A DNA stretch of 64,000 nucleotides, from IMG/VR virus record IMGVR_UViG_3300031994_005355; one strand, 5' to 3'. A program made the translations under genes and the position numbers. The notes under the pieces were generated by a model that saw only the letters and a list, made by a program, of their open reading frames with translations, did not search any database and had not been told where the DNA came from. This document shows, piece after piece, positions 1,244 to 49,325 of the stretch (within the stretch, counting starts at the first letter, position 1; the number at the start of each line of letters is the position of its first letter). Source of the DNA: a virus. Taxonomy: Duplodnaviria; Heunggongvirae; Uroviricota; Caudoviricetes.

Positions 1244-1430
1244 ACGATTTAGAAGATTATAATATATGTATTAAAACTACTAATACAATTATTATATCAG
1301 ATGTAGGTAAGTCATTATGACAGATAGAGAACTAACAGAACAATATGTTAATTATAAATAATAAACGCCGGGTCCCACGGATATCCGCGGAGCTTCAGCT
1401 CCGCGGGAGTGGGAGGCATCAAAGGACAAA

Positions 1431-1838
1431 ATGAACAATTATCATTCACATAATCGACACAAATATCTTCTACAGTTTCATTTGATATTTGTAGTGAAAT
1501 ATCGTAAAGCATTACTAAATATTAAGAAGATTGACGAAGATATTAAACAATTATTATTTGACAGTTGTCAGAAATACAATGTAGAAATTAAGTACATGGA
1601 AACAGATAAAGATCACTGTCACATGATGATCTCTACAGATCCAACAATCAGATTGTCTGACTTAGTCAGGTCTATGAAGTCATTTTCAGCATTTCATATT
1701 TGGAAAAAGCACGAAGGTATCCTTAAGAACTTCTTTTGGAAAGAACGTACATTCTGGACAGATGGCTACTTCATATCCTCTATTGGAGAAGTATCAGAAG
1801 AGACATTAAAGCAATATATAGAAAATCAAGGAAAATAA
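1431..1838 (+). CDS. tnpA: IS200/IS605 Y1 (HuH) transposase TnpA
   Basis: 135 aa; HuH-like HSHNRH motif near N-term, conserved KYRK, C-terminal TDGYFISSIG catalytic-Tyr region typical of IS200/IS608 TnpA. Confidence 0.85.
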   Translation: MNNYHSHNRHKYLLQFHLIFVVKYRKALLNIKKIDEDIKQLLFDSCQKYNVEIKYMETDKDHCHMMISTDPTIRLSDLVRSMKSFSAFHIWKKHEGILKNFFWKERTFWTDGYFISSIGEVSEETLKQYIENQGK

Positions 1839-1861
1839 GAATAAGAAAGGAGGTAGTATAC

Positions 1862-3475
1862 ATGGCAGACAGATATGAATTTTTACAAATTGTTGATAAT
1901 GTTCTTTATTATAAAAACTTTGGTTATGATAGCAAATTAAATGTTCTACATTATTTACTTAATGCTATTACTCTACAACATGAGCTACTTCCTATCTTTC
2001 ACAAAGTTAGCTCTGAAGAAGGTTTTTATTCTATTTACTGTACATTAAATAGTAAATACTATAATGTATTTCTAAATGGACACAGACAAAAGCTATTAGT
2101 CTCTAATGGTAAGAAGAGATTTCTAAATCAAATAATGGGTAACTGTAGATTACTCTACAATCGTATGGTAGCTAGAAACAATTACTGCATAGATCATAAA
2201 GAAGATACATTTGTGAAAAAATATGCTGAGTATACCAATCGTGGTTATAAGAATTATCATGATGGATATACATTACAATATGGTGAATATTTAACCTATG
2301 GTAGATATGATAAGAAGACTGAATCTTACTCACTATTAGTTTCTTATCCCAAAGAAGAAACTTTCTTTAATGGTTATTCCAGTATGTACTACAATTGCGT
2401 ATTACAACATTTTTTAGAAGCACGTAACCGTGCTTTTAAGGGACTTGGTAAGAGACCAACCTTTAAGAGTAAACATGGAAGTCAGAGTTGCCAGTTATCT
2501 TGTAACTGCTCAACTGATAGTTATGGATATAAAAACTTCAATTATTTCCAGCTCTTTAGTGTAGGGTACAATATGCATGATTATTCAGGCAGTAACAGAA
2601 CTAAGGTAGCTAAACTTTTTAGAGTAAATGAGGAGAATAATTGGAGAAAACCTAGATGTCAACACAGATTAGGTCTAAATCTAAACAAATCATGTACTAC
2701 TATTCAATCAAGAGATAAGTCTTATGAAATCAACACACTGACATTTACTATGTCTAAAAATCGTAAACCTGTATCTGCATATCTTAAGGATGATAACTTT
2801 GGAGCTAAGACAGTAACAATAACACGGGAGCCAAATGGTAAGTATTATGTATCTTTTCCAGTATGGGATTGTGTCGAAGTTCCTGAACCTAATGATAATG
2901 TAGTAGCATTTGACTTTGGAGTTAAAACTTTTCTTACATATTCAGATGGCTCTACAGAGGAAATGCCCAAATTCTTCGATGTCTACAAGAAACATCTTGA
3001 CAGAGTAAACACTGCTCTCCAAGGTACAACTAAGAACTCTAAGAAACACAAGAAGCTTCAATGTAAATTGGCTAATATTCATGCAAAGATCAAAAATTCC
3101 AGACGCAATTTCCATCATCAACTGACTCACAAAATGGTAAGTGAAAACCAAGTTATCATTAGTGAGGATCTTGATATTAAGGAAATGCTTCAGAATAAAT
3201 CTTTGCCTGCAGAGTTCCATCGTCATGTCGCTGACGCTTCTTGGTACGAGTTCACAAGACAATTAGAGTACAAATCTAAACGCTATGGAAGAACTTACAT
3301 CAAAGTTCCAAGACACTTTGCCTCATCTCAAATTTGCTCTAAATGTGGTAAGATCCATACTGAGATGAAAGATCTTTCCAATCGTCAAATGATTTGTAGT
3401 TGTGGAAACAACATCGATCGAGATCACAATGCTGCAATCAATATTGAGCAATTAGGTCTCTTAATGATATCGTAA
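1862..3475 (+). CDS. tnpB: TnpB (OrfB) RuvC-like RNA-guided nuclease, 537 aa
   Basis: ATG 1862 (M43 of track ORF) after GGAGGT RBS; RuvC-I VVAFDFGVKTF, RuvC-II IISEDLDIKEM, zinc finger CSKCGK...CSCGN, RuvC-III DRDHNAAINI. Confidence 0.85.
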   Translation: MADRYEFLQIVDNVLYYKNFGYDSKLNVLHYLLNAITLQHELLPIFHKVSSEEGFYSIYCTLNSKYYNVFLNGHRQKLLVSNGKKRFLNQIMGNCRLLYNRMVARNNYCIDHKEDTFVKKYAEYTNRGYKNYHDGYTLQYGEYLTYGRYDKKTESYSLLVSYPKEETFFNGYSSMYYNCVLQHFLEARNRAFKGLGKRPTFKSKHGSQSCQLSCNCSTDSYGYKNFNYFQLFSVGYNMHDYSGSNRTKVAKLFRVNEENNWRKPRCQHRLGLNLNKSCTTIQSRDKSYEINTLTFTMSKNRKPVSAYLKDDNFGAKTVTITREPNGKYYVSFPVWDCVEVPEPNDNVVAFDFGVKTFLTYSDGSTEEMPKFFDVYKKHLDRVNTALQGTTKNSKKHKKLQCKLANIHAKIKNSRRNFHHQLTHKMVSENQVIISEDLDIKEMLQNKSLPAEFHRHVADASWYEFTRQLEYKSKRYGRTYIKVPRHFASSQICSKCGKIHTEMKDLSNRQMICSCGNNIDRDHNAAINIEQLGLLMIS

Positions 3476-3672
3476 CAAACTAACAAAGTCAGTTACGGTA
3501 CGACATACCGAAACTATAAACCCGCCCCGCTAAAAGTCAAGTGACAGGGGTAACACGGACTTAACGTCCCTCAGCGATAAAATTGGATTAACGACCCAAG
3601 ACTAAATCTCTCTCCTTCCCAACCAGGAATCAGCGGAGCTTTAGCTCCGCTGTATGTCAAAAATATTAAATA
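3476..3672 (+). ncRNA. putative omega RNA (reRNA) scaffold of TnpB copy 1
   Basis: ~190 nt noncoding between tnpB stop and IS right end containing RE hairpin; positional analogy to known TnpB omega RNAs; not folded. Confidence 0.4.
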
Positions 3673-3813: not shown

Positions 3814-4797
3814 ATGACAGTAGATCAACAAATAAAAAATGACTTAGCAGCTTATTTTATAAGCAACAGTGTTACAGATGCTACAAAAGGAGTTGAAAAC
3901 CTAAGGTCTCTTCTAACACCTGCGATAATGCAAAATAATAATATTACAGATGCTACACCAGTTAATGTGCAAGCTTGGATAGCTCTTCAGATATTTAGTA
4001 ATAGTCCTATGCGTTACCATTCATCTGCGATACTTGGAACATTCATCTATGACTCGAGAATGTATAGTGTACAAGAACAAGAAACAAATACTTTAGTGAC
4101 CTATTATAGACTACACTATAATTCGGATTGTGGATTGAAACCTGTACTTCCTGAAGGATGTAGTTCTTGCGTAGAAATGTTTGCATTTTGTAAATTACCT
4201 GATAACTTCTCTTTAGATGATAGTTTCTATAAAGCAAACATTATGCATGCACATAATATGTTTTGTGGATGTACATTACCTTCTGGGTTTGTATTTCCAA
4301 TGTACAAAACAAAAGAAGAGTTACTAAACTATGTAAAAGAACTGCAGAGCAAGCCATACGGTCATACAGTCAAGGCTGAAAAGAAAGGAATTGTTATAGC
4401 AAGAGAAGCAAAAGAAAATGAAGAATTAGATGTTTACACCAAAAATGGAAATTTTGAAGGACACGAAACTGCTCAAAAAGGTGATATGATACTCACACGT
4501 GCGAATGATGATGGAACTCCATATGTAGATGATTATAGTCATATTAACAGTTGGAAAGTCTCAAGAGAAACGTTTGAGAAAAAGTACGACACAGCAAATC
4601 CTATAAAAGAAGGTGTCTACAAACCTGCTAGTGGAGTACAATTATTCATCCAAATAAATGATGATATTTCTTTTGATGCTCCCTGGGGTGAAAGACAGAA
4701 TATTCGCACACATGGTTATCTCAATATTACAGATCTTAATGATTTGTATGGTATTGCAGAAGAAGAATTCAAAGAAACATACAAGTATATAGAATAA
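3814..4797 (+). CDS. hypothetical protein, member 1 of shared-N-terminal-module family (IKxDLAxYF...AWxALQ...P.RY)
   Basis: 327 aa; N-terminal ~65 aa alignable to 22275..23798 and to aa ~90-160 of 45223..47241. Confidence 0.55.
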   Translation: MTVDQQIKNDLAAYFISNSVTDATKGVENLRSLLTPAIMQNNNITDATPVNVQAWIALQIFSNSPMRYHSSAILGTFIYDSRMYSVQEQETNTLVTYYRLHYNSDCGLKPVLPEGCSSCVEMFAFCKLPDNFSLDDSFYKANIMHAHNMFCGCTLPSGFVFPMYKTKEELLNYVKELQSKPYGHTVKAEKKGIVIAREAKENEELDVYTKNGNFEGHETAQKGDMILTRANDDGTPYVDDYSHINSWKVSRETFEKKYDTANPIKEGVYKPASGVQLFIQINDDISFDAPWGERQNIRTHGYLNITDLNDLYGIAEEEFKETYKYIE

Positions 4798-4885: not shown

Positions 4886-4914
4886 TTGTTTGGTTATAGG
4901 TTCACGTTACTGTA
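4886..4914 (+). promoter_or_regulatory. sigma-70-like promoter (ttggtt -35, 17-bp spacer, TGtataat extended -10)
   Basis: Read directly in 4880-4915; followed by near-palindrome aatgttacgttacatt (possible operator). Confidence 0.4.
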
Positions 4915-4989
4915 TAATGTAAATGTTACGTTACATTTTAGGATCCTGAAAATCCGTACACATAGTGTTTACTAATCGAAAACCCACAA

Positions 4990-5016
4990 GGCGGGCTGGG
5001 TCGGTTGACGTCCGCC
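4990..5016 (+). promoter_or_regulatory. conserved hairpin motif copy 1 (7-bp stem, 13-nt loop TGGGTCGGTTGAC) in 5-prime leader
   Basis: ggcgggc/gcgtccgcc stem; loop 12/13 identical to copy at ~48600 with fully different stem sequence (covariation). Confidence 0.45.
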
Positions 5017-5027
5017 ATCAAAAGAAA

Positions 5028-5525
5028 ATGATAACATTAATTATATCTAATGCTTTATCACTAATAGGTGAAATTTCAAATACTATACTTCCTTTCCTTT
5101 CAACAAAGAAAAGAATGTTGTTATTACAAGCAATTACTCAAATAGTATTTGTAGTTGCCTATGCAGTGAATGGAAGTTATGTTTTGGTTGCACTTTGTCT
5201 AATTGTAGGACTACGTAATTTATATAATGCTTACTTGAAGTCAAATCTTATAGTCAATATATTATTTCTAATCATTGGTACATTAATTAGTGTTGTAGTA
5301 AATACAAACGGCTGGTTAGGTGTACTTCCGATTATTTGTTATGTTGACTATACTGTTTCGATTATGATAACAGAAAATCCTCAAATATTACGTTGGGTAT
5401 TATTAATGAACACAATACTTTATATAATATTTGATTTTGGTATAATGATGTATGTTTGTTTTGCATTTGATGTATTTCACATAGTAACTAATAGTATTGC
5501 TATTTGGAAATACAGAAAGGAGTAA
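5028..5525 (+). CDS. integral membrane protein (multi-TM)
   Basis: ATG 5028 (M22 of track ORF 4965); hydrophobic helices throughout; upstream part of track ORF is the structured leader. Confidence 0.5.
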   Translation: MITLIISNALSLIGEISNTILPFLSTKKRMLLLQAITQIVFVVAYAVNGSYVLVALCLIVGLRNLYNAYLKSNLIVNILFLIIGTLISVVVNTNGWLGVLPIICYVDYTVSIMITENPQILRWVLLMNTILYIIFDFGIMMYVCFAFDVFHIVTNSIAIWKYRKE

Positions 5526-10137: not shown

Positions 10138-10425
10138 ATGGTATGGCATAGGATACATGAAGAATTGTATAATCCTAATCTCACTATAGCACAGAATATT
10201 GCTAATGGTTGTGATATACCACCAGAGGATAGCGTACCTGTTCTTGTGCTTGAGTGTGATAAGCCTAAACCTTTTGTAGGAAGATTGCATTATGATGAAG
10301 AAGTGAAAATGTTGAGGTGGTATGAATCATTACATGGTTACCCCTATTGTGACACAAAATTCACTTTATGGACACCTATAGATTTTCCTTCACAAGATGA
10401 ACAGGAAGCTCTATACAAAAATTAA
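10138..10425 (+). CDS. hypothetical protein; stop codon coincides with IS left end
   Basis: ATG 10138 after GAAAGGAG; TAA stop at 10423-10425 is the first 3 nt of the IS end TAAACGCC. Confidence 0.45.
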   Translation: MVWHRIHEELYNPNLTIAQNIANGCDIPPEDSVPVLVLECDKPKPFVGRLHYDEEVKMLRWYESLHGYPYCDTKFTLWTPIDFPSQDEQEALYKN

Positions 10426-10517
10426 ACGCCGGGTCCCGTGGATAGCAGCGGAGCTTTAGCTCCGCTGGAGCGGGAGGCATCAAATGATAAAATAAATCTT
10501 CAAGAAAGGAGGCAATT

Positions 10518-12044
10518 ATGAGAAAAACTTGTCTTGTAAAACAAGTTGTGCGTATACGACTTTATCCAAATAAAACTCAACAGATATGGCTTGACTGTAA
10601 TTTTCAAAATGCAATTGACTATCATAATTATCTCCTTGCAAATATTTATGAAGATGACGTGGAAATTGATGAAGAAACTGGTGAAGAAAAAGATGTTATT
10701 AGAATAAACTGGGATACTATAAATAGTAAATATGGATTGGCAACATTACAATCTAAATTCCATTATGCTCTTAGAAATGTTACAGAAGATAGAATACGTA
10801 CAGATCGAAATAATTTAAAGATTACACAGTATTATCGTGGACGTACTATTGAAAATATTTATGATCAAGTATGCAATGACGTTAAAAAGAACTTTTGTAC
10901 ATTTTATCGTGATGGTAAAGGGAAACCAAGATTTAAATCAAACCGTGGTAGAGTAACATTTAGGATGCCACAAAATAGCCGTGACTTACATTTAGTAAGA
11001 CGCAAAGATGAAATGAATCATGATAATGGTTTTGATTTCAAAATTAATAGAATTGAGAAGAAACACAGCTCTAAATTATCTCATAATTTAGGTTGGTTAC
11101 ATATACCATCTTGCGGTGCTGGTAATGATAATGCTGATGATTTTATAAAGTGCTTTGCACCATGTAACATAAGTAAGGAAGATATCAGTTCTATCACATT
11201 TATACGTGAAGCATCTGGAAAGTATTACGCCACTATTGTATTACGTATAGGAAGAGTCTATTTATTTAAAAAGCAAGCACTTGATGATATGTTATGTGAA
11301 AAACAAGTAGGTGTTGACATAAATCTTTCACCTAAAACAAGAGTAGTTACTAGTACTTTTCAGGGTGATGTTACTGAGTTCAAGTTCGAACAAAAAGAAG
11401 AGATAATACAAGCACCAACACCATATAAAGATTATTTCTCCAAACTACGTAAAGAGCAACGTTCACTCTCTCGCAAAGTAAAGTTTTCTAAGAATTGGTT
11501 TAAGCAAAAACAAAAGGTTGCTCACATTCATGAAAAGATTGCAAATATACGATTGAATTTCAATAGACAAACAGCAGCCTATCTAACCAAGAATTACCAA
11601 TCAATCGCAATCGAAGATTTGAGTATTACTCAAATGAAACGTGGTCAACCACGTTGGTTCCAGAAGCTCTACAATGATGCTAACCTATACCAGTTACGAC
11701 AGTGTATTCGCTGGTCTTGTCTTAAGACAGGAAGAGAACTAAACTACGTTTCACCAGAGCATACCTCAAAAACTTGTCATGATTGTTGGTACACTAATCA
11801 TGATTTGAAACTAGGACAGAGTTCCTGGGTATGCCCTAACTGTGGGGTAATCCATCATCGAGATAGGAATGCTGCTAGGAATATCTACAGCCTTGCATGG
11901 GCCTATGACGAGGTTGAAGGTGAATTATTAGAGAATCAAGTAACCTATGATCCATTCGAAGAGCGACAGCCAGTAAATAATCTCTATTTCCTAGAAAATC
12001 TTTCAAAACGTATTGGAGAAGAAGTAACAACAGTTTCAGCTTAA
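10518..12044 (+). CDS. tnpB: TnpB (OrfB) RuvC-like nuclease, 508 aa
   Basis: RuvC-I VGVDINLSP, RuvC-II IAIEDLSITQM, Zn finger CHDCW...CPNCG, RuvC-III HRDRNAARNI. Confidence 0.85.
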   Translation: MRKTCLVKQVVRIRLYPNKTQQIWLDCNFQNAIDYHNYLLANIYEDDVEIDEETGEEKDVIRINWDTINSKYGLATLQSKFHYALRNVTEDRIRTDRNNLKITQYYRGRTIENIYDQVCNDVKKNFCTFYRDGKGKPRFKSNRGRVTFRMPQNSRDLHLVRRKDEMNHDNGFDFKINRIEKKHSSKLSHNLGWLHIPSCGAGNDNADDFIKCFAPCNISKEDISSITFIREASGKYYATIVLRIGRVYLFKKQALDDMLCEKQVGVDINLSPKTRVVTSTFQGDVTEFKFEQKEEIIQAPTPYKDYFSKLRKEQRSLSRKVKFSKNWFKQKQKVAHIHEKIANIRLNFNRQTAAYLTKNYQSIAIEDLSITQMKRGQPRWFQKLYNDANLYQLRQCIRWSCLKTGRELNYVSPEHTSKTCHDCWYTNHDLKLGQSSWVCPNCGVIHHRDRNAARNIYSLAWAYDEVEGELLENQVTYDPFEERQPVNNLYFLENLSKRIGEEVTTVSA

Positions 12045-12237
12045 TATAGTAACTCATAAATAAAAGCAAATCGCTGATAACGTCAACTATCCGTTTGTTT
12101 CGTACAACACGTGCTGGCATTGAGAGTGCCCACGTAAACGCCTATTCTTAAGAGTAAGCTAACACTCAACGTGCTCTACTTACTCTACGGGGTAGGAATC
12201 TCACGAGCTTTAGCTCGTGAGTACATTTCAAGATTAA
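12045..12237 (+). ncRNA. putative omega RNA scaffold of TnpB copy 2
   Basis: ~190-nt noncoding tnpB-distal segment ending in RE hairpin; by analogy. Confidence 0.4.
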
Positions 12238-22274: not shown

Positions 22275-23798
22275 ATGAAAGCATCTGAAAGAATCAAATC
22301 AGATTTAGCTACATACTTTTCAAAGAATGGTATTACAGATGCTGAAAAGAGTATTGTTAAATTAAAAGGACTTCTTCATCAAAGTGTATTAGAGGCTGAA
22401 GGATTGACGCAAGAGAGTGAGTTAGTTAAAGCATGGACAGCTCTACAGTTACAAGAAGGTTTACCTTTTAGGTATGATGTTAAAACCAATAGTATTTATA
22501 ATATTGACACTGTTGTGGAGTTTAAAACTAAACGTTTTTTATACAATATTATAACTACAAGTGTTTTAAATAAAACAGGATGCTTTGCAATAACTGGTTC
22601 GAGAAGAGTGGGTAAAACAATTCTCTTAAAGCAGCTGTATAATGATAATATGTCTTCATCAGAATTCTTAGACTGTTCGGTACGATATCCTATGAACTTC
22701 AATGAATATTATAATACTATTATACAAGCGGGTAAAAAGTATGTATTTATAGATGAAGTTTGTAAGCTTACTGACAATCATTGTGAATTTGTAAGTGCTA
22801 CTAAAGCTGCAGCATCTAAGCTATGCATTATCATAACAGGAAGTACAAGTTTCGTAATTGAAGACATGTGTGAGGATATTGGAAGGGGTGAAATTTACAC
22901 ATTACCGCCATTTATGTATATAGAGACTTTGAGTTGGCAAAAAGATGCCACATTAAATGATGTTATGCAGTATGTATCTAATGAATCATTCATAACATAT
23001 TTGAAAAGTCAGTTCATGTCAAATATGGAATTGATAGATTATATGCGTGGTGTTGTACACGATACCATAGCATCATATAGAAATCATTCGACTCTGGAGG
23101 GAGAGATTTCGTTATCAACTAAAGAGTTAGATAAGTGTTTAATTTACATATCAGTGTGTCAATTATTATACCGTAGGAGTACTGATAATCAGTTTATAGA
23201 TATGCCAAATATAGGTCCTGTAGTAAAAGAGTGTCTTAGAAGTAAAGACATTTTTAGTGTAACAGAGCGTCTTGGTTTGAAGAATAATACAATAGAAACT
23301 GTACTTGACATTTTATGTAGTTGTAATCTTGCTAAGAAAATAAGAGTATTAAAGGATACACATAATACAAGTATTGATGCATTTTTATTTGAGTATCCAT
23401 GGTACGTTAGCTATTGTTTAAGCCCGAGTATACAGGACAGTGAAATTTTATTAGATTTATGGGTTGAATATTATATTCTTATGAAAGCATACTATGTATA
23501 CTCTGATATTGCAAAGTTTAGAACTGGAGCTCAAGAAGAGATTGATGTGTTATACAGAATTAACGGATGGTTAGGATTAGAAATAAAAAATAGACCTGAT
23601 ACAAACTTAACAAGAAAATATAAAGCAAAGCTACAAGAATTATCTAATACATATAGTATTTCAGATATATTTATTTCAAATAAGTCATGTAATGCTAAAA
23701 TAGCAGCAAGTCTGGAACTAGAATACATTAGGTTGCTTAATGAAGGATTAACATATTCAACATTTAATATTCAGGATCTTTTAAATAAATACTTTTGA
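22275..23798 (+). CDS. AAA+ P-loop ATPase (COG1373/DUF4143-like) with shared N-terminal family module
   Basis: Walker A GSRRVGKT, Walker B VFIDEV; N-terminal IKSDLATYF...VKAWTALQ...PFRY homologous to 3814 and 45223 ORFs. Confidence 0.6.
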   Translation: MKASERIKSDLATYFSKNGITDAEKSIVKLKGLLHQSVLEAEGLTQESELVKAWTALQLQEGLPFRYDVKTNSIYNIDTVVEFKTKRFLYNIITTSVLNKTGCFAITGSRRVGKTILLKQLYNDNMSSSEFLDCSVRYPMNFNEYYNTIIQAGKKYVFIDEVCKLTDNHCEFVSATKAAASKLCIIITGSTSFVIEDMCEDIGRGEIYTLPPFMYIETLSWQKDATLNDVMQYVSNESFITYLKSQFMSNMELIDYMRGVVHDTIASYRNHSTLEGEISLSTKELDKCLIYISVCQLLYRRSTDNQFIDMPNIGPVVKECLRSKDIFSVTERLGLKNNTIETVLDILCSCNLAKKIRVLKDTHNTSIDAFLFEYPWYVSYCLSPSIQDSEILLDLWVEYYILMKAYYVYSDIAKFRTGAQEEIDVLYRINGWLGLEIKNRPDTNLTRKYKAKLQELSNTYSISDIFISNKSCNAKIAASLELEYIRLLNEGLTYSTFNIQDLLNKYF

Positions 23799-29631: not shown

Positions 29632-29644
29632 ATGAATAGTATTA

Positions 29645-29782
29645 GCTGTGGTGGCGGAAAAGGTAGACGCTTATTCTAATAAGGAAAGTTACGACACATT
29701 GCCTCTTTTATTAGGGGCCTGAAGTATGACCGTTGGAATACTTTTCATGCGAGGTGACAGAAATACAAATCCTCGTCCACAG
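29645..29782 (+). ncRNA. non-canonical tRNA-like RNA X1
   Basis: Canonical tRNA 5-prime half (acceptor gctgtgg, U8, D-arm gcg-gaaaaGGtaga-cgc with A14/G18G19/A21), ~80-nt variable insert, conserved 3-prime module atgcgaggtgacagaaatacaaatcctcgtc (6-bp stem, 16-nt loop) then acceptor complement ccacagt; paralog of X2. Confidence 0.4.
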
Positions 29783-29801
29783 TGATTTTGAAAGGTAAGT
29801 A

Positions 29802-33306: not shown

Positions 33307-33427
33307 ACTTGGGTGACGGAATAGGTAGACGTTTTAAGGTCAAAAGTAAAGTTCCAGTGTTGAGAACGCACAATGAAACTAGGGCTGACTATGCGAGGTG
33401 ACAGAAATGCAAATCCTCGCCCCAAGT
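33307..33427 (+). ncRNA. non-canonical tRNA-like RNA X2 (immediately upstream of tmRNA)
   Basis: acceptor acttggg/cccaagt, D-arm acg-gaataGGtaga-cgt, variable ~60 nt, conserved module atgcgaggtgacagaaatgcaaatcctcgcc; acceptor stems of X1 and X2 differ but both pair (covariation). Confidence 0.4.
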
Positions 33428-33431
33428 ATAA

Positions 33432-33810
33432 GGGCCTGTACTGGTTTCGACGGGGATATAAAAGTACAACTTGCATCGGGTGGTCACCTATAACCAACTT
33501 AAATACAGACGCTAAGCCTGTAGCTATGGCTGCTTAATCTTAAGATTAAGTAGTTCCGACTTGTTCGGCTCTGTTAGAGATGTTGCACACTAACTCAACT
33601 CTACAGTGACTAAAGTAATTACGTGTGATGTCGGCAACTCAACAAGCGTGAGATACAGTCAATCCGATGAAACTGTGATATCGCTAACCCTATCGGTAAT
33701 GGTTTGTTGTATGCCTAGTAACAAGGGTAAATGTTACTGAAATATGAATAAGATGTAGATGGTTGTATGACTAGTATTTTCGGACAGGGGTTCGACTCCC
33801 CTCAGGTCCA
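33432..33810 (+). ncRNA. ssrA: tmRNA (ssrA)
   Basis: 5-prime GGGCCUGUACUGGUUUCGACGGGG matches tmRNA 5-prime consensus; 3-prime T-arm aggggttcgactcccct and acceptor caggtcc pairing with 5-prime gggcctg; internal ACUUAAAUA followed by frame ...D A K P V A M A A TAA (tag-like); terminal CTA instead of CCA. Confidence 0.75.
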
Positions 33811-33826
33811 CTACAAGGAGGAAGCT

Positions 33827-40853: not shown

Positions 40854-40859
40854 AACTTC

Positions 40860-41500
40860 TGTACATCGACCGTAAGGTTCAAAGTAAAGGTAGAGTGTGG
40901 TGAGACGCCGTTACGCAGAGGTATGGTTGGGAAGAGAAAAGCTAAGGTATAGTAGAGTTTAGTAAAGCTCAGTCTAGTAATGGTACAGCTCGGTGAGGTG
41001 TAGTTTAGCGATGGCATCGCGAGGTGTGGTCCTGTATGGTAATGGCATTGTATGGTATTGTGATGTAGGGTAAAGTAATGGCATGGTGATGTATTGTTCC
41101 GCTATGGTATTGTGCAGTCCGGTTATGTCATGTAGTGGCAAGGTGCGGTCTTGTATGGTAATGGTGCCGTTCAGTACTGTCCAGTCAGGTTACGTCTAGG
41201 TATAGTGTAGCTGAGTCTCGTGATAGTATAGTGTGGTATCGTGATGGCATAGTCATGTCCAGAGTCGTTACGTAACGGAAAGGTATTGTAAGCAAAGTGA
41301 CGTCATGGTAACGTAGCGCCAGGTCCGGTTATGCCCTGCTTTGGTATGGTTGAGAAAAGAAAAGCTAAGCCGAGGCAAAGTAAAGCAACACACAGCAGTG
41401 GTATTGTGACGCAGTGTTTTGCAGAGGTAATGCCTAGTATCGCTAGGTAATGAAACAATGTGGGAAAGTAGTATGCCATGCTTTCCCACATACAAAAAGA
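40860..41500. repeat. C-poor GT/A-rich noncoding island with >20 irregularly spaced ATGG(T/C)A / TGGTA short repeats and longer degenerate repeats
   Basis: No plus-strand ORF (dense TAG/TAA/TGA); repeated ggtatggttgRgaaRagaaaagctaag (40920, 41342) and tcYtgtatggtaatggYRYYg (41028, 41150); ends with 11-bp perfect hairpin atgtgggaaag...ctttcccacat (41458-41492). Confidence 0.5.
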
Positions 41501-41518
41501 AATGGGAGATTGTAGTAA

Positions 41519-43645: not shown

Positions 43646-43717
43646 ATGCCCCGTAGTCAAGAGGTAAGGCATCGGACTTTGACTCCGTCATTCGCGGGTT
43701 CGAATCCCGCCGGGGTA
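43646..43717 (+). tRNA. tRNA-Gln (anticodon TTG)
   Basis: Acceptor tgccccg/cggggta, anticodon loop ctttgac, T-arm gcggg-ttcgaat-cccgc; resembles bacterial tRNA-Gln. Confidence 0.8.
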
Positions 43718-43737
43718 GTTTATTAAAGGATTAAATC

Positions 43738-45198
43738 ATGACTACATTAAATATTGAGGAACTGCTTTATTCAAATAGTATATGGGAATCAGTACTGGGT
43801 GAAATGTGGGTACGTAAAGTAGAACCTGAAACGGTTGCAAGAATTACTATGTTAGATTATCGCTACGATATTTGTAATAAACTTATTACAGGTAGTTATA
43901 AATTTAATCCACCTAAATTAGTACATATACCGAAAGATGATGGAACACTGCGTGATCTTCTTATTTTAGAGGACCAAGATAGGATAGTCATGCAGGTTCT
44001 ATATAAAATATATTATAGTTTATACAAAAGCAATATTCATTCATCATGTATGAGTTATCAGACTGGAGTATCTGTAAAAGATATTGCTGTACAAATACGT
44101 AACGGACTTAAATCAGAGTTACAGCGTTATAAACTTGATATATCAAAATATTTCGACTCTGTGCCTCAAGATGTAATAAACAGAGAATTGAATAATATGG
44201 ATCCTACATCTGGACCAACAGTATCTCTTTATAATTTCTATAATGATAACCGTATCATTGTGCATGGTAAAGAAGTTGAGCATTTCAAATCATTATGTCA
44301 AGGTTGTTCATTTAGTGCATTACTAGCAAATGTTATACTCTATGATATTGATGAATATTTATCAGCGCACGCTGATATGTATATCCGTTATTCTGACGAT
44401 ATGTACATTCAAGATGCTAATGTTAATGCATTAATTGTTAAAGCAAAAGAGATGCTTGCTCATAAAGGTCTCATACTAAAAGACTCTAAGGTTCAGCAAC
44501 TTGCAACCTCATTTGATTTTGTTGGTGTACATATTTCACCTACTAGACTATCCATAGGTAAAAAAGGATTAAGAAATATATGCAATAATATCAAACAAAA
44601 GTTGAAGAATAAAACTAGTCTTGAAAGAGCAATACGTGCAGTGCAGAGTTATTTATTATCTTCTGATACTAATGGTTATTCAGCACTAAGTTATTGGTTT
44701 AATATTTGTACAAATGTGGATGACATTATAAAGTTGGACAGAATGATTAAAGATGAAATAAGATATCACTTCACCAACAAACATAATATTGTACATAATA
44801 TACATCAGTTACCTAATCAAGCTTTCAAAGAAAGTGGTTGGGTGTCACTTGAATATTTATACAGATTGTACAAACACGATAAGAATGCATATAAAGCATA
44901 TAGTGCTTACATTCTGCATAAGTATATGCTTACACCTAGTAAGATACGTTCGTATATGACAATTGATAAGATATCTAGTGATTTACTCAAATTTTGGGAA
45001 ACAGCAAAATATGCTAAGCATAGTCCATTTATAACGTATGAAAAACCACTAGATGTTGATTTCAATATCTCATCGTATGAAAGTAATACTGCACGAGAAT
45101 ATATGTGTAACATCATTAAAAATGCAACAATTGATTTTGGTGAGGATAAGTTCATAAAAGTAACTGATGAGTTATTTTTATTTAAAGATTGGTTTTGA
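43738..45198 (+). CDS. reverse transcriptase (group II intron/retron/Abi-UG lineage) with thumb-like C-terminal extension
   Basis: RT1-2 LVHIPKDDGTLRDLLILEDQDRIVMQVL, RT3 YKLDISKYFDSV, RT4 QGCSFSALLANVIL, RT5 YIRYSDDMYI, RT6 GLILKDSKV, RT7 FDFVGVHI; ~190 aa after RT7. Confidence 0.85.
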   Translation: MTTLNIEELLYSNSIWESVLGEMWVRKVEPETVARITMLDYRYDICNKLITGSYKFNPPKLVHIPKDDGTLRDLLILEDQDRIVMQVLYKIYYSLYKSNIHSSCMSYQTGVSVKDIAVQIRNGLKSELQRYKLDISKYFDSVPQDVINRELNNMDPTSGPTVSLYNFYNDNRIIVHGKEVEHFKSLCQGCSFSALLANVILYDIDEYLSAHADMYIRYSDDMYIQDANVNALIVKAKEMLAHKGLILKDSKVQQLATSFDFVGVHISPTRLSIGKKGLRNICNNIKQKLKNKTSLERAIRAVQSYLLSSDTNGYSALSYWFNICTNVDDIIKLDRMIKDEIRYHFTNKHNIVHNIHQLPNQAFKESGWVSLEYLYRLYKHDKNAYKAYSAYILHKYMLTPSKIRSYMTIDKISSDLLKFWETAKYAKHSPFITYEKPLDVDFNISSYESNTAREYMCNIIKNATIDFGEDKFIKVTDELFLFKDWF

Positions 45199-45222: not shown

Positions 45223-47241
45223 ATGAAAGAACTAGAGTTCGCTACAATAAGATATGCTCGTAATATTTTGCATAAGTACTATCTCACAATAGGTGACCTT
45301 GAAGGTTATTGTCGTACATCATGTACCTATGATACAACTGTTTTAGATTTATATAAGGAAAAGTATGATAAGATTTTAAAAGTAATTCCTAAGGCTTTAC
45401 CTGTAACAGAAGATTCATATACTTTTGAAAAAGAACAAAATATAGTAGAAGCAAGTAGAGCTCAATTTTTAAAAGTAATAAAAAAGGATGTAGCTCAGTA
45501 TGCATTAGATAATGGATATACTGATGTACCAAAAATGGTTAATGACTTAGCTTCAACAATAACTGATGGTGTGTTAAAATCTAAATATAAAGATATGTTA
45601 CCAGACCTTAGTGAATTAGAATCACCACTTATTAAGGCTTGGCTTGCTATACAGATAACTAATAATTCTCCCTACATTTATGTTCCGGTACAAAATGATC
45701 ATGGAAGATTAGTATATGGTCATTTCAAGAATACAGCTTCTAATGGGATATTTGATGATCAGACATTTAAGGATGTAATAAATCCTCATATAACATGTAA
45801 TGCGCATTCAAATAAACCAAGAATTTCGACAAATATAAGAACCATGCGTTATAATCCTTATCTTGTACGTAGATGGTTACCTAATCAGTTTCTTGAAGAA
45901 TTTATGAACATAGAGAATAATAAAGTACTTGGATTTAATGAAAAGTTATTTGAATCGTATAAAGAACTTGGATTTGAGTGGCGTCATTGTAAATCCTATG
46001 ACAAGGATAAGTATTACGTTAAAAGTATGGAAATTAAAGACCACACAAAACCTATTTATTCAAAGTTGTGTATTATAGGTGAATTTATAGGAGCTATAAG
46101 AGATAATTCAAATCTACGTGTTATAAAGAAAATAGATTATAAAGCTTATTCTAAAATACTAGATTACATACATGCATGTGTCTTAGATAATCACCAGGCT
46201 GACACAACAGTGTTAGAAAAATTATTACCAGATGTCGATCTATTTAAATTTATTGCTTTAGATAAAACTCCAGCAATGAAAGAGAGTATAAAAAGTGCTT
46301 ATGAGGTTCTTGAATATTTAGCTATAGATAAATTTGTAGGCTCTTCACGTGATGAAAAAGTGATTAAGGAAGTACGGGATTTTATACAAAGTGTGACATC
46401 TGATACCGAACTTTTACAACGACAACCTAGCGTAGCATTGATAAATGAAAATGATATGTTATCATTCTTTGATCTTCTTTATATGAAGTATGGTAATGGC
46501 TGGGTACAGGTATGTTATCCTGATGTATCACCTGAAGCAAAAGCTAGAAGTATAAGTAGACAGTACGAACGGAGAGCTCGTACCAATTATTTACCTCAGT
46601 ATGTACGTGAGTTACGTAGTAGAAAGTCAAAGAGAGCCTGGTCAAGGTATTTAAGTGCCATTACTAATATAATACAGAATCCTAATTATGTAACTGATAC
46701 GATCGCAGACATTAATGAAATCATTAATAATGCATTATTGAATAATGTTAAATATGCAGTAGACGAAGTAAAAGCTGCAAGTGATGAGTATCCCTATCTA
46801 AAAGAATTATTAGAGAGGAAACAAAATGTATTTAAGTGGCGCATATTCAACGGATTTACATATTATGGTTCTGATGCATATTATCGTATACACAGAGATA
46901 TGGTATTTACAAAGCGTCGTATAAAAGCACAAACACCAAACTGGTACCACATATTCAATAAAAAAGAAGATTTAAAGGTTGCTGAGTATTATACGGAGTT
47001 AGATAATCTTAACACATTTGAAGACTTCTTTAGACGTGGTGCTGTCTATACTGTGATACATTACCGTGTGTCATACAAACACGAGTCCCTTGACACAGTT
47101 TGTCGTGAGGTCACTAAAGCATTTTCAAAAGGTATGAGTGTAGTGGAGATCGAACACGAATTCTTAAACAACGTTGAAGATTGCACGGCTTATTACAATT
47201 ATATGCAAGAAGCACATTTTAATACACTTATAAAGAGATAA
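45223..47241 (+). CDS. 672-aa RT-associated protein containing the shared family module
   Basis: 25-nt gap after RT; aa ~90-160 IKKDVAQYA...IKAWLAIQITNNSPYIY homologous to N-termini of 3814 and 22275 ORFs. Confidence 0.55.
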   Translation: MKELEFATIRYARNILHKYYLTIGDLEGYCRTSCTYDTTVLDLYKEKYDKILKVIPKALPVTEDSYTFEKEQNIVEASRAQFLKVIKKDVAQYALDNGYTDVPKMVNDLASTITDGVLKSKYKDMLPDLSELESPLIKAWLAIQITNNSPYIYVPVQNDHGRLVYGHFKNTASNGIFDDQTFKDVINPHITCNAHSNKPRISTNIRTMRYNPYLVRRWLPNQFLEEFMNIENNKVLGFNEKLFESYKELGFEWRHCKSYDKDKYYVKSMEIKDHTKPIYSKLCIIGEFIGAIRDNSNLRVIKKIDYKAYSKILDYIHACVLDNHQADTTVLEKLLPDVDLFKFIALDKTPAMKESIKSAYEVLEYLAIDKFVGSSRDEKVIKEVRDFIQSVTSDTELLQRQPSVALINENDMLSFFDLLYMKYGNGWVQVCYPDVSPEAKARSISRQYERRARTNYLPQYVRELRSRKSKRAWSRYLSAITNIIQNPNYVTDTIADINEIINNALLNNVKYAVDEVKAASDEYPYLKELLERKQNVFKWRIFNGFTYYGSDAYYRIHRDMVFTKRRIKAQTPNWYHIFNKKEDLKVAEYYTELDNLNTFEDFFRRGAVYTVIHYRVSYKHESLDTVCREVTKAFSKGMSVVEIEHEFLNNVEDCTAYYNYMQEAHFNTLIKR

Positions 47242-47368
47242 ATAACTAAAGCTTTGTCCTAGGCTACACTAACTATGTTTCTTAATCCACAATACAAATC
47301 ACTACGTGATTCGTATTGATCTTAATCGTATTGTAGAAATAGGACAGTTAGAAACCAGGTTAGTGTAT

Positions 47369-47450
47369 GCACCGCTGATGGAATTGGCAGACATGCAAGA
47401 TTTAGGTTCTTGTGCCGGAAGGCGTGTGGGTTCAAGTCCCACGTGGTGCA
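47369..47450 (+). tRNA. tRNA-Leu (anticodon TAG), type II
   Basis: Acceptor gcaccgc/gtggtgc, anticodon stem caaga/tcttg loop tttaggt, variable hairpin gcc-ggaa-ggc, T-arm gtggg-ttcaagt-cccac. Confidence 0.75.
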
Positions 47451-47534
47451 TCGACATTGGTGTGTACACCTCCAGTATAATCCTGTTAACTAATCTTGCA
47501 TCACAAGTACACACCAATGTCATAAAGGAGCATT

Positions 47535-48182
47535 ATGGATATAATGACAATAATATCTTTTCTTACTGCACTGGGTAATACTATGACACACCCTGAGACA
47601 ATAGTAATATGTGGTGGTACTTCTATCGCATTGGAACATGGATTTAGACAATCGACTGAAGATATTGACTGCATAGAGTGCAGTGCTTATACAGCAAAGA
47701 TAGCACATATAATAGCACGACATTACACTTTGCATATAGCATTAAGTAGTCATGTTTGTGTAACTGACTCGTACAGTCCAAAGTTATTGTATTATGCAAC
47801 TACTTATGGTAAGTTTGGAAATCTTACTGTAAAAACAATATGTGGTGTACCATTACTTTGTATGAAGTTAAAGTCATATCGTCAAAATAGTAAAGATAGG
47901 ATTGACTGTGAATTTCTACTCAAAGAAGCAATTACTTATGGAAAGACGTACGACGATGTTCTTACTACGTTCAAAGACATTTATGGTAATGAAGCACTAA
48001 TGCCTATAGCTGCTGAGACAGCTTTACGTAGAGCATTCAACATACAAAATGTTGAAGAGATACAGGATAAACTTTCTAAGTTTTCAAAACTTATCAATGA
48101 TGGTCTTCTTAGTATAAATGACATTCCGGTAGAATATCGTAATCAAATTCTTGAATATACTTTGGAGAAGGCTGATGACTAA
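47535..48182 (+). CDS. nucleotidyltransferase-fold protein
   Basis: ICGGTSIALEHGFRQSTEDIDCIE matches GGxS...DxD NTase motif. Confidence 0.5.
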   Translation: MDIMTIISFLTALGNTMTHPETIVICGGTSIALEHGFRQSTEDIDCIECSAYTAKIAHIIARHYTLHIALSSHVCVTDSYSPKLLYYATTYGKFGNLTVKTICGVPLLCMKLKSYRQNSKDRIDCEFLLKEAITYGKTYDDVLTTFKDIYGNEALMPIAAETALRRAFNIQNVEEIQDKLSKFSKLINDGLLSINDIPVEYRNQILEYTLEKADD

Positions 48183-48588
48183 AAAAGTTTTAATAAAAGA
48201 TGTTTATGATAAGCTACGTAAAGCATATGACGACTTGCAAGATGTAATTGAATTAGAGCTAAAAGACAGTGAAGACATTGTATCGTACTTAAAACGTGAA
48301 GAAGAGATTTATGAGACAATAATTACCTATCAAAGTATTATAGATAACTTTGATATCAACACTACTGTTGAGGAATATGAATATACTGTATCCACTTTAA
48401 AGAATGCACTAGAATGGAAACGTGATCAACTAAGGCGTTTACACAAATTCAAACAAGCCTATCATGATGACACAAACATACTTAACAGATATAATGAAGT
48501 ACGTGATGATGTGATAAAAATGGAAAATGCATTACAGCGCATATATAACTCAAATTATGTATCAATAAACACTACCACTGAAATATGA
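48175..48588 (+). CDS. helical partner protein, possible HEPN-like (RDQLRRLH = Rx6H)
   Basis: ATG overlaps upstream stop (ATGACTAA); weak HEPN-motif guess. Confidence 0.35.
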   Translation: MTKKVLIKDVYDKLRKAYDDLQDVIELELKDSEDIVSYLKREEEIYETIITYQSIIDNFDINTTVEEYEYTVSTLKNALEWKRDQLRRLHKFKQAYHDDTNILNRYNEVRDDVIKMENALQRIYNSNYVSINTTTEI

Positions 48589-48599
48589 AAAACCAACAT

Positions 48600-48624
48600 G
48601 GAAGCTGGGTCGGTTGATGCTTCC
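48600..48624 (+). promoter_or_regulatory. conserved hairpin motif copy 2 (6-bp stem ggaagc/gcttcc, loop TGGGTCGGTTGAT)
   Basis: See copy 1 at 4990; followed at ~48643-48690 by second hairpin ggggagacat...atgtctcccc. Confidence 0.45.
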
Positions 48625-48713
48625 GAAGCTCAAACTAATTCTGTAACCGGGGAGACATAATGTGATTACCCCGTCACTATAATGTCTCCCCACCTCCTTC
48701 AAAGGGTAGTAAA

Positions 48714-49325
48714 ATGGTAAATAATGAAGCAATAATTTATTCATACTTAAATCATAAGTTGATGGTAGATACTAAGATTAAAGAACTAAAAAATAATAAT
48801 ACTTTAATCCTTGATATAGATGAGGATAAAACTATTTTAAGTAAAAAAGATTTGTATGAATTAGTCGTAATGTTAAATGATAGAAAAATGACATTACCTA
48901 ATATAATCATCGAAACTAAAGATGATACTTATGTATGCAATGTACCTGAATTTATGTTCACAGACTTACGTCGTAAAGAGCCACGATATGCACTAGAAGC
49001 AGAAGTGATAGTGCACCCTAATGATAGTACAGATATTTTCAGTGGTACTGTATTCGACGTTTCTGATACAGGTATAGGTATAATACTAAAAAATACAAAT
49101 GCTTTTAATTACGTTAATAAACAATCATTTATAAGTATCTGGGATGACGAAAAGATGGTTTGTGTTGAAGGTATATGTAAATATTCACAAGAAAATACAA
49201 GCACTCAGATGCGTATAGGATTCCAAGTAATAAAAATTTCAGAAGAATTCTTGGACTTAGTTACTAAAGCTAAAGTGAATAATGTTCATCAACAAGATGA
49301 TGAACATCTTGTAGCACTATTTTAG
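48714..49325 (+). CDS. PilZ-domain protein (putative c-di-GMP receptor)
   Basis: RRKEPR (RxxxR) followed ~24 aa later by DVSDTGIGI (DxSxxG). Confidence 0.55.
   Translation: MVNNEAIIYSYLNHKLMVDTKIKELKNNNTLILDIDEDKTILSKKDLYELVVMLNDRKMTLPNIIIETKDDTYVCNVPEFMFTDLRRKEPRYALEAEVIVHPNDSTDIFSGTVFDVSDTGIGIILKNTNAFNYVNKQSFISIWDDEKMVCVEGICKYSQENTSTQMRIGFQVIKISEEFLDLVTKAKVNNVHQQDDEHLVALF

Follow-up and report, generated by a model that had tools for sequence, protein, structure and literature searches.

A short RNA hairpin with an invariant apex occurs twice in a 64,000-nucleotide (nt) stretch of phage DNA (IMG/VR record IMGVR_UViG_3300031994_005355, Caudoviricetes; hereafter the window, meaning the whole stretch analysed), once directly before a gene for a YgjV-type membrane protein and once upstream of a gene for a PilZ-domain protein. 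The hairpin is a real, selected, sense-strand structured element of no described family: a new motif of a familiar kind. Our tentative reading, to which we would give somewhat less than even chances, is that it acts in cis, in the sense transcript, as a docking site (operator) for a putative sequence-specific trans-acting factor.

The first copy lies at 4990-5016 on the + strand and consists of a 5' arm ggcgggc (4990-4996), a loop region TGGGTCGGTTGAC (4997-5009) and a 3' arm gtccgcc (5010-5016), the arms forming a lower stem of 7 base pairs (bp) with one G.U pair. Its minimum free energy fold is at -15.2 kcal/mol. The second copy (48599-48625, + strand) has the arms ggaagc (48600-48605) and gcttcc (48619-48624) around the loop region TGGGTCGGTTGAT (48606-48618), with the stem lengthened to 7 bp by a U48599.G48625 pair; it is unchanged in a second assembly (L121). 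Both are intergenic, on the coding strand, and GC-rich within a genome of 34% guanine plus cytosine (GC). They are same-strand direct repeats separated by 43.6 kb, with an identical 16-nt core, GCTGGGTCGGTTGAYG, at 4995-5010 and 48604-48619. An earlier note on this DNA had reported two hairpins with a conserved 13-nt loop differing at one position, and direct reading of the sequence bears out both the sites and the single C/U change, while the 3' arm of copy 1, quoted there as gcgtccgcc, is the shorter one given above. The size and conservation of the 13-nt loop also stand, but the loop is not open. In single-sequence folds of both copies it is a structured apex made of a 3-nt UGG bulge on the 5' side, a 3-bp helix GUC/GAY (GUC/GAC in copy 1, GUC/GAU with a G.U pair in copy 2) and a GGUU tetraloop, and RNAalifold independently returned the identical structure from five sequences, namely the two copies and the three orthologues described below.

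The two stems differ in sequence and agree in pairing. All seven lower-stem pairs are kept between the copies: four differ on both sides, one on one side only (G.U versus G-C) and two are invariant, so that the description of the stems as fully compensatory holds for the pairing and for the four double changes but not for the remaining three pairs. Across the two copies all 20 cells of the structure are paired (100%), as against 30-60% when the partner strand is slid by 1-3 columns. The bulge, upper helix and loop, on the other hand, are the same in both copies save for the one C/U change, which retains a G.U pair. Conservation also extends 5' of the stem: an ungapped alignment shows a tract G-A-A-A-A-n-C-C-A common to both copies at a fixed distance from the loop. 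In copy 1 it belongs to a single-stranded segment, ACTAATCGAAAACCCACAA (4971-4989, + strand), which is conserved in all three orthologues and whose GAAAA-CC-A recurs in copy 2; in copy 2 the corresponding segment, GAAAAACCAACA (48587-48598, + strand), overlaps the stop codon of the 137-amino-acid (aa) gene upstream. All five sequences have AACC on the 5' side and UCAA(A) on the 3' side, each of them complementary to the loop sequence GGUUGA, which is itself invariant. Beyond this the two loci are dissimilar. The local match between their 3-kb neighbourhoods is limited to about 30-45 nt, and a longer ordinary duplication, which by the earlier note would have refuted the finding, is ruled out since only the ~30-nt block links them.

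Orthologous leaders provide a second line of evidence. Three ENA contigs (L126, L127 and L128) encode YgjV-like proteins 85-87% identical to that of the window, relatives found in the same lineage only, and all three carry the hairpin with 26-27 of its 27 positions identical. A block starting with ACTAATCG, 19 nt 5' of the stem, and extending as far as the AUG has 52-54 of 57 positions identical (93%), compared with 77 of 138 aligned columns (56%) in the leader upstream of it and 82% at third codon positions of the YgjV-like gene. The one substitution in the L128 hairpin, C to U, preserves a U.G pair. Judged from these alignments, the block is under strong purifying selection compared with the adjoining leader, and the proposal that selection acts on structure is strengthened from both directions, by stems that compensate between copies and by a hairpin that stayed nearly invariant while the upstream leader fell to 56%. 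All three orthologues have a 1-nt deletion between hairpin and AUG; the region is therefore untranslated and the element a feature of the 5' untranslated region. An in-frame, GTG-initiated extension of the YgjV-like open reading frame (ORF) is likewise not coding, given that deletion. Copy 2 has no comparable orthologue: the sole contig with a relative of the PilZ gene (L122, 749 nt) starts inside hairpin 2, and the 137-aa protein upstream has no homologue.

The pattern of wobble pairs bears on the strand and on the type of molecule. Every wobble pair is a G.U on the + strand (7 of 50 cells, arising from at least three separate changes); on the opposite strand these become A.C mismatches and pairing drops to 84%. 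Because the wobbles are G.U on the + strand, and because all genes lie on the + strand, the sequences favour an element that would act as RNA in the sense transcript, the + DNA strand in single-stranded form being a less likely substrate.

How unusual is such a pair? The 13-nt loop and the 16-mer are found at these two sites of the window only, the 16-mer even when three mismatches are tolerated, and with up to three mismatches none of 100 shuffled windows contained two or more matches. A looser, blind count of hairpin pairs (stems of at least 6 bp that differ, loops of 13-16 nt differing at no more than one position) gave at least one qualifying pair in 20 of 300 dinucleotide shuffles (~7%). 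Taken alone, then, the coincidence of two such hairpins is only moderately unlikely, and it is convincing in combination with other evidence: because ~7% of shuffles yield loose hairpin pairs, the case rests on the 16-mer, the 5' tract, the conservation and the strand together. A covariance model built from the two copies scored them at 62.5 bits (copy 1) and 60.2 bits (copy 2) and, run with filters off on both strands of the 64 kb, found no third copy, the next match (E = 0.18) being without a hairpin. The remark that no other copy was noticed by eye is thus borne out for the window. About 48 kb of related contigs held no further copy besides the orthologues.

Searches in larger collections were equally negative. 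The bare 14-mer matched 120 times in IMG/VR, never within a hairpin context, and a pattern including the 5' tract had no match in IMG/VR or in JGI metagenomes. A stem-anchored pattern matched 18 times in GTDB genomes and 22 times in metagenomes, numbers equal to the chance expectation, and all of these matches were high-GC or coding, and stemless. At gathering thresholds, the 4227 covariance models of Rfam 15, which cover phage RNAs, leaders, T-box and riboswitches among others, recognised only a transfer-messenger RNA (tmRNA) and two tRNAs in the whole window, and the two leaders alone, searched at E up to 10, gave only spurious matches to microRNA, small nucleolar RNA and small RNA models at 12-13 bits. 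In the literature we found nothing on the hairpin sequence or on ygjV riboswitches, and what we read on RNA-binding repressors of jumbo phages was uninformative.

Copy 1 stands 193 nt 3' of a 327-aa gene and ends 11 nt before the AUG of the gene that follows (5028-5525, + strand), which encodes a 165-aa inner-membrane protein of the Imp-YgjV family (Pfam PF10688, E = 7.4e-15), in agreement with the multi-spanning membrane protein expected there. The 11-nt A-rich spacer, ATCAAAAGAAA (5017-5027, + strand), holds the UCAAA common with copy 2 and lacks a Shine-Dalgarno (SD) sequence of the GGAG type; about half of the naive ORF calls in the window carry GGAG or GAGG upstream. Upstream of the hairpin is a sigma-70-like site, TTGGTT-17-TATAAT (4890-4918), that had been rated a good promoter: its -10 element is perfect, but its -35 element matches at only three of six positions and the site is not conserved in the orthologues.

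The setting of copy 2 is less simple. It begins 11 nt past the stop codon of the 137-aa gene and ~105 nt downstream of the best nearby sigma-70-like site (ATGACA-17-TATAAT, 48467-48495, 11 of 12 matches), which lies inside that gene. The claim that both copies lie in 5' leaders accordingly stands for copy 1, untranslated and before the AUG, whereas for copy 2, close to a stop codon and with its best promoter-like site inside the preceding gene, leader status is a presumption. The PilZ gene starts 88 nt downstream. It encodes a 203-aa protein (48714-49325, + strand), and its assignment was confirmed (Pfam PF07238, E = 4.4e-7). The translation retains both c-di-GMP (cyclic di-GMP)-binding signatures, RKEPR (RxxxR) and DVSDTG (DxSxxG), which suggests a phage-borne c-di-GMP receptor; among 5.8 billion proteins its sole relative was 94% identical. 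Host origin of leader and gene has no support, the PilZ and 137-aa proteins being without relatives beyond near-identical copies.

Between copy 2 and the PilZ gene, after a 24-nt spacer, comes a second long hairpin with a perfect 10-bp stem, a 23-nt loop and an inner 5-bp helix. The stem and loop are as first described; the coordinates are 48649-48691 (+ strand) rather than 48643-48690. Its 3' half is conserved in L122, the contig of the 94%-identical relative, where a C-to-U change retains a G.U pair. It is found in the PilZ leader only and is probably an element separate from the shared motif. The suggestion that the two hairpins together make a riboswitch-like platform therefore fails as a shared unit, hairpin 2 being absent at copy 1, and no Rfam model matched at E up to 10. 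Immediately following the long hairpin, CACCUCCUU (48691-48699) is identical to the 3' end of 16S rRNA, that is, an anti-SD mimic, and the CAAAGGG that follows it is the sole, weak SD-like sequence before the PilZ AUG (region 48691-48713). The two are predicted to pair in the fold, which suggests local masking of the PilZ ribosome-binding site. A 10-codon mini-ORF (MKNQHGSWVG, 48585-48617) starts in an ATGA overlap with the stop of the 137-aa gene and ends at a TGA in the copy 2 loop. It is absent at copy 1 and thus no part of the shared motif; it might link translation to the unfolding of the neighbour of hairpin 2.

We favour an RNA operator because an invariant apex, a covarying scaffold and an adjacent conserved tract resemble hairpins bound by proteins. 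Such a combination is the trace left by sequence-specific RNA-binding proteins, as in coat-protein operators, PyrR loops, TAR and boxB, and the invariant apex, covarying scaffold stem and purifying selection of a generic protein-binding operator hairpin are all found here. The recognition surface would comprise the apex (UGG bulge, 3-bp GUC/GAY helix, GGUU tetraloop) and the single-stranded GAAAA-CC tract 5' of the stem, with the 7-bp lower stem a mere scaffold, which, because it is no more than that in this proposal, would be free to vary in sequence as long as it pairs. A protein of the phage or of its host is the most likely factor; that the factor binds, what it is and in which direction it acts are the points we infer. 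Binding would co-regulate two accessory genes, those of the YgjV-type membrane protein and of the c-di-GMP-binding PilZ protein. The hairpin of the ygjV-like mRNA, 11 nt before an AUG without an SD, would fall within the footprint of the 30S subunit, and an occupied hairpin would block initiation (translational repression); in the PilZ leader, at 88 nt from the AUG, action would instead need to go through the fate of the mRNA or through neighbouring structure. Several observations weigh against this proposal. The distances to the start codons differ widely, 11 versus 88 nt, and therefore one translational mechanism cannot serve both sites. With fold-energy z-scores of -1.2 and -0.4, the short hairpins do not stand out. 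In L126 a G-to-C change disrupts the lowest pair of the 3-bp upper helix, on a contig of ~2.5x coverage where it may be an error. The comparison comprises two paralogous copies and three close orthologues, and all covariation comes from one contrast, copy 1 against copy 2.

Among explanations at the level of the transcript, control of elongation by a nut- or TAR-like site is the closest rival because it is independent of distance: the GAAAA-CC tract, as a boxA-like element, and the hairpin, as a boxB-like one, would, from the nascent RNA, equip RNA polymerase with a factor for antitermination or termination, a single mechanism that fits both sites despite 11 versus 88 nt to the AUG. The order of linear tract, short spacer and hairpin, the last with an apex that is constant and a stem that is not, reproduces the two-part layout of lambdoid nut sites; there are exactly two copies in the window, each ~65-110 nt downstream of the best nearby sigma-70-like site, and the very stable hairpin after copy 2 could be a pause or termination signal. 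We nonetheless think it unlikely, given sequences unlike boxA or boxB, promoter-like matches no commoner than in shuffles (that of copy 1 lost in the orthologues), and neighbours among which no N-like or Q-like protein was recognised, their proteins having given no informative family matches. A scan for intrinsic terminators, which does not cover Rho-dependent ones, also found no such site on the + strand within ~1.5 kb downstream of either copy. The hairpin might alternatively be a passive stabiliser or processing site, the mRNA being cut or started in the A-rich tract and the new 5' end guarded from 5'-dependent decay. This would account for a hairpin that is stable and, within a genome of 34% GC, GC-rich, with an A-rich single-stranded tract adjoining its 5' side. 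The orthologues have a -35/-10-like pair, TTGGTC-17-TTTAAT, from which transcription would begin where the conserved block starts. Yet passive protection requires neither an invariant 13-nt apex nor a conserved bulge, and the loops of other intergenic hairpins in the window are unrelated; we regard this explanation as quite improbable. Still less probable, in our judgement, is a minimal riboswitch-like pseudoknot in which the 5' AACC or the 3' UCAA pairs with the loop GGUUGA and a metabolite selects the conformation, controlling a transporter-like gene and a c-di-GMP receptor gene. The complementarity is present in all five sequences, the element adjoins the start of a transporter-family gene, and its size and layout are like those of the smallest pseudoknot riboswitches. 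The proposed tertiary pairs, however, are only 4 bp and, being invariant, lie beyond a covariation test, the spacing of the 3' UCAA differs between the copies (1 versus 5 nt), Rfam yields no riboswitch match at E up to 10, and confinement to one phage lineage is untypical of riboswitches. We would thus give slim chances to the idea that the ~45-nt unit (AACC tract, GGUUGA-apex hairpin, UCAA tail) is a new, tiny pseudoknot-forming sensor RNA, its ligand being a small molecule or else a tRNA 3' end recognised through the UGG bulge; if it were, it would let a huge phage couple transporter-like and c-di-GMP receptor genes to host physiology.

Two further explanations do without a functional RNA. 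A signal in the DNA could be a promoter used by an alternative or phage sigma factor or polymerase (its -35-like element being GAAAAC and its -10-like element GTC, separated by 15-16 nt, or its -35 being the TTGAC of the loop), a hairpin-type promoter, or a nick or recombination site of an HUH enzyme or integrase. The segment between the conserved 5' tract and the conserved loop does vary in sequence but not in length, as between promoter elements, and a promoter scan picks TTGACG-16-AATGAT at 5005-5032; the copies are same-strand direct repeats 43.6 kb apart, conserved loops on variable stems are typical of HUH and integrase nick sites too, and hairpins of single-stranded DNA also tolerate G.T pairs. 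A promoter, though, leaves unexplained the complementarity, in both copies and with compensatory changes, of spacer and downstream arm. The -10 candidates are poor, the copy 1 start site would lie inside the ORF, and just two copies in 64 kb with ~85 genes are few. The wobbles become A.C mismatches on the template strand, the one used by hairpin promoters of phage N4, and there is no adjacent HUH or TnpA gene, the TnpB elements of the window bearing a different hairpin family. We rate a DNA-level signal as improbable on these grounds, marginally below the passive stabiliser. Least credible of all is a chance resemblance or a functionless, neutral relic of an old short duplication, to which we would assign a very small probability. 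It can appeal to the 7% of shuffled windows that hold a loose hairpin pair with near-identical 13-16-nt loops and to exact 15-16-mers not being extremely rare repeats in 64 kb in principle, but it has to accommodate a GC-rich 16-mer in a 34% GC genome with two matches in none of 100 shuffles, two intergenic copies on the same strand with 7-bp stems, compensatory differences and a common 5' tract, and, in the orthologues, a block under strong purifying selection when set against the adjoining leader.

Several specific identities were tried and discarded. An intrinsic (Rho-independent) terminator is rejected: the 3' flanks, AUCAAAAG and GAAGCUCA, lack a U-tract, and a scan of the + strand was negative at both sites. 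A coding explanation fails as well, with the frame of the motif differing between copies, the mini-ORF present in copy 2 only and a frameshifting indel before the AUG in the orthologues. A recoding signal like a selenocysteine insertion sequence (SECIS), acting after the UGA stop at copy 2, is excluded by copy 1, which has neither an upstream ORF nor a UGA. A hairpin promoter of the N4 type, with a 5-7-bp stem and a 3-nt loop on the template strand, does not agree with a 13-nt loop and with wobbles that are A.C on that strand. Pairing of the loop in trans within the window finds its best site at 3117-3129, in tnpB, at -18.4 kcal/mol, no better than for shuffled loops.

The window, of ~34% GC, carries ~85 genes, every long ORF being on the + strand, together with two TnpB genes, a tmRNA and three tRNAs. 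It is a portion of an uncultured huge phage genome; YgjV-like and 137-aa proteins identical to those of the window are also encoded on one contig of 293,727 bp. Deposited phage genomes gave no nucleotide or protein match to the window (tblastn, megablast), and its proteins are mostly without a family assignment. The hairpin element is restricted to this one huge-phage lineage, whose proteins are nearly all unannotated and for which no relative is in culture or deposited. Host-like accessory genes are numerous in huge phages and their regulation is almost undescribed; a shared, selected RNA element before YgjV-type and PilZ genes would delimit a small regulon, and the hairpin could serve in experiments both as a reporter element and as bait for the factor that binds it. 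As a familiar type of motif with a very narrow distribution it is of modest general importance, unless it turns out to sense a ligand or to belong to a new antitermination system.

Other features of the window deserve mention. TnpB genes (IS605 OrfB / Cas12f-like) lie at 1736-3475 and 10518-12044, within regions 1338-3660 and 10399-12230, and are flanked by hairpins at 1385-1406, 3631-3652, 10446-10467 and 12200-12221 with a 9-bp stem, a TTTA or TTCA loop and a compensatory outer stem. The two elements also share a 98-nt 5' repeat (80% identity), and the flanking hairpins are likely element ends or omega-RNA hairpins. An ORF-free stretch of 665 nt at 40854-41518, with 45% GC, consists of ~90 pentamer units of the form NNNGT and contains 93 GT dinucleotides, against a mean of 57 and a maximum of 70 in shuffles, with 43 of 92 GT-to-GT spacings exactly 5 nt. 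Tandem Repeats Finder sees no ordinary tandem repeat there, and an 11-bp hairpin (41458-41491) stands at its end. With a period of 5 the stretch is non-coding, and it might serve as an array for binding at multiple sites or as a template related to reverse transcription. A reverse transcriptase of the defence-associated UG27 class is encoded at 43738-45198 (PADLOC RT_UG27, E = 3.5e-65; Pfam RVT_1), with tRNA-Gln (43647-43718) directly upstream; after it come a 672-aa protein, tRNA-Leu (47368-47452) and a DUF6036/AbiEii-like nucleotidyltransferase (47535-48182). An N-terminal domain of ~70-80 aa with the motif AW(I/L)A(L/I)QI-(S/N)NSP recurs at 3814-4044, 22275-22475 and 45478-45726 in three otherwise different proteins, the carriers being the 327-aa protein, a 507-aa AAA_14 ATPase and the 672-aa protein. 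The domain is encoded upstream of both hairpins, but the association is not exclusive, the third protein (22275) having no hairpin. Finally, a 37-nt repeat (89% identity) that contains a hairpin GCGAGG...CCTCGC occurs at 29747-29783 and 33391-33427. Its second copy is immediately 5' of the tmRNA gene (33432-33811, tag AKPVAMAA) and its first is inside a gap of 170 nt (29632-29801), where another small RNA might be encoded.

Comparison with known systems places the element among several types of hairpin without assigning it to any. The TnpB-flanking hairpins of the window are alike in design, with a conserved apex GAGC-TTTA-GCTC, compensatory outer stems and a common strand, but are of another sequence family and flank TnpB genes, whereas the conserved-loop hairpins directly precede cellular-type genes; no transposase adjoins 4990 or 48600, and an IS200/IS605 end or TnpB omega-RNA is rejected. 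The antiterminator of T-boxes, whose bulge UGGN pairs with the NCCA end of tRNA, offers a likeness in its GC-rich lower helix (..GGGC), a 5'-side bulge starting with UGG, a short upper helix and a small loop. It differs in having a bulge of 7 nt rather than 3 and a Stem I with specifier, and the leaders are too short. A T-box riboswitch is rejected, with no match to RF00230 at E up to 10, the 3-nt bulge and no alternative terminator in the folds. Lambdoid nut sites, made of boxA and a boxB hairpin bound by the N protein, share a single-stranded tract followed by a hairpin with specificity at the apex, and they too occur as two copies per genome, on the sense strand and close to promoters; nutR lies after cro, just as copy 2 lies just past the stop codon of the preceding gene. 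BoxB, however, is a 15-nt hairpin with a GNRA-like pentaloop, in contrast to an apex of 13 nt with bulge, 3-bp helix and tetraloop, and we saw no N-like gene or downstream intrinsic terminators. A lambda-type nut site by consensus is likewise rejected, GAAAA-CC-A and UGG/GUC-GGUU-GAY differing from boxA and boxB. The MS2 and PP7 operators, PyrR loops and human immunodeficiency virus TAR have unrelated hairpin sequences, and copy 2 stands at a long distance from its start codon; PyrR attenuation involves a competing terminator and antiterminator, which the leaders described here lack. These systems resemble the element in how they are built: PyrR sites recur in a few leaders as the same loop on different stems, the MS2 operator sits, as copy 1 does, in the ribosome-binding region, and in all of them a bulge, a short upper helix and a loop confer specificity, on a lower stem that is a scaffold free in sequence.

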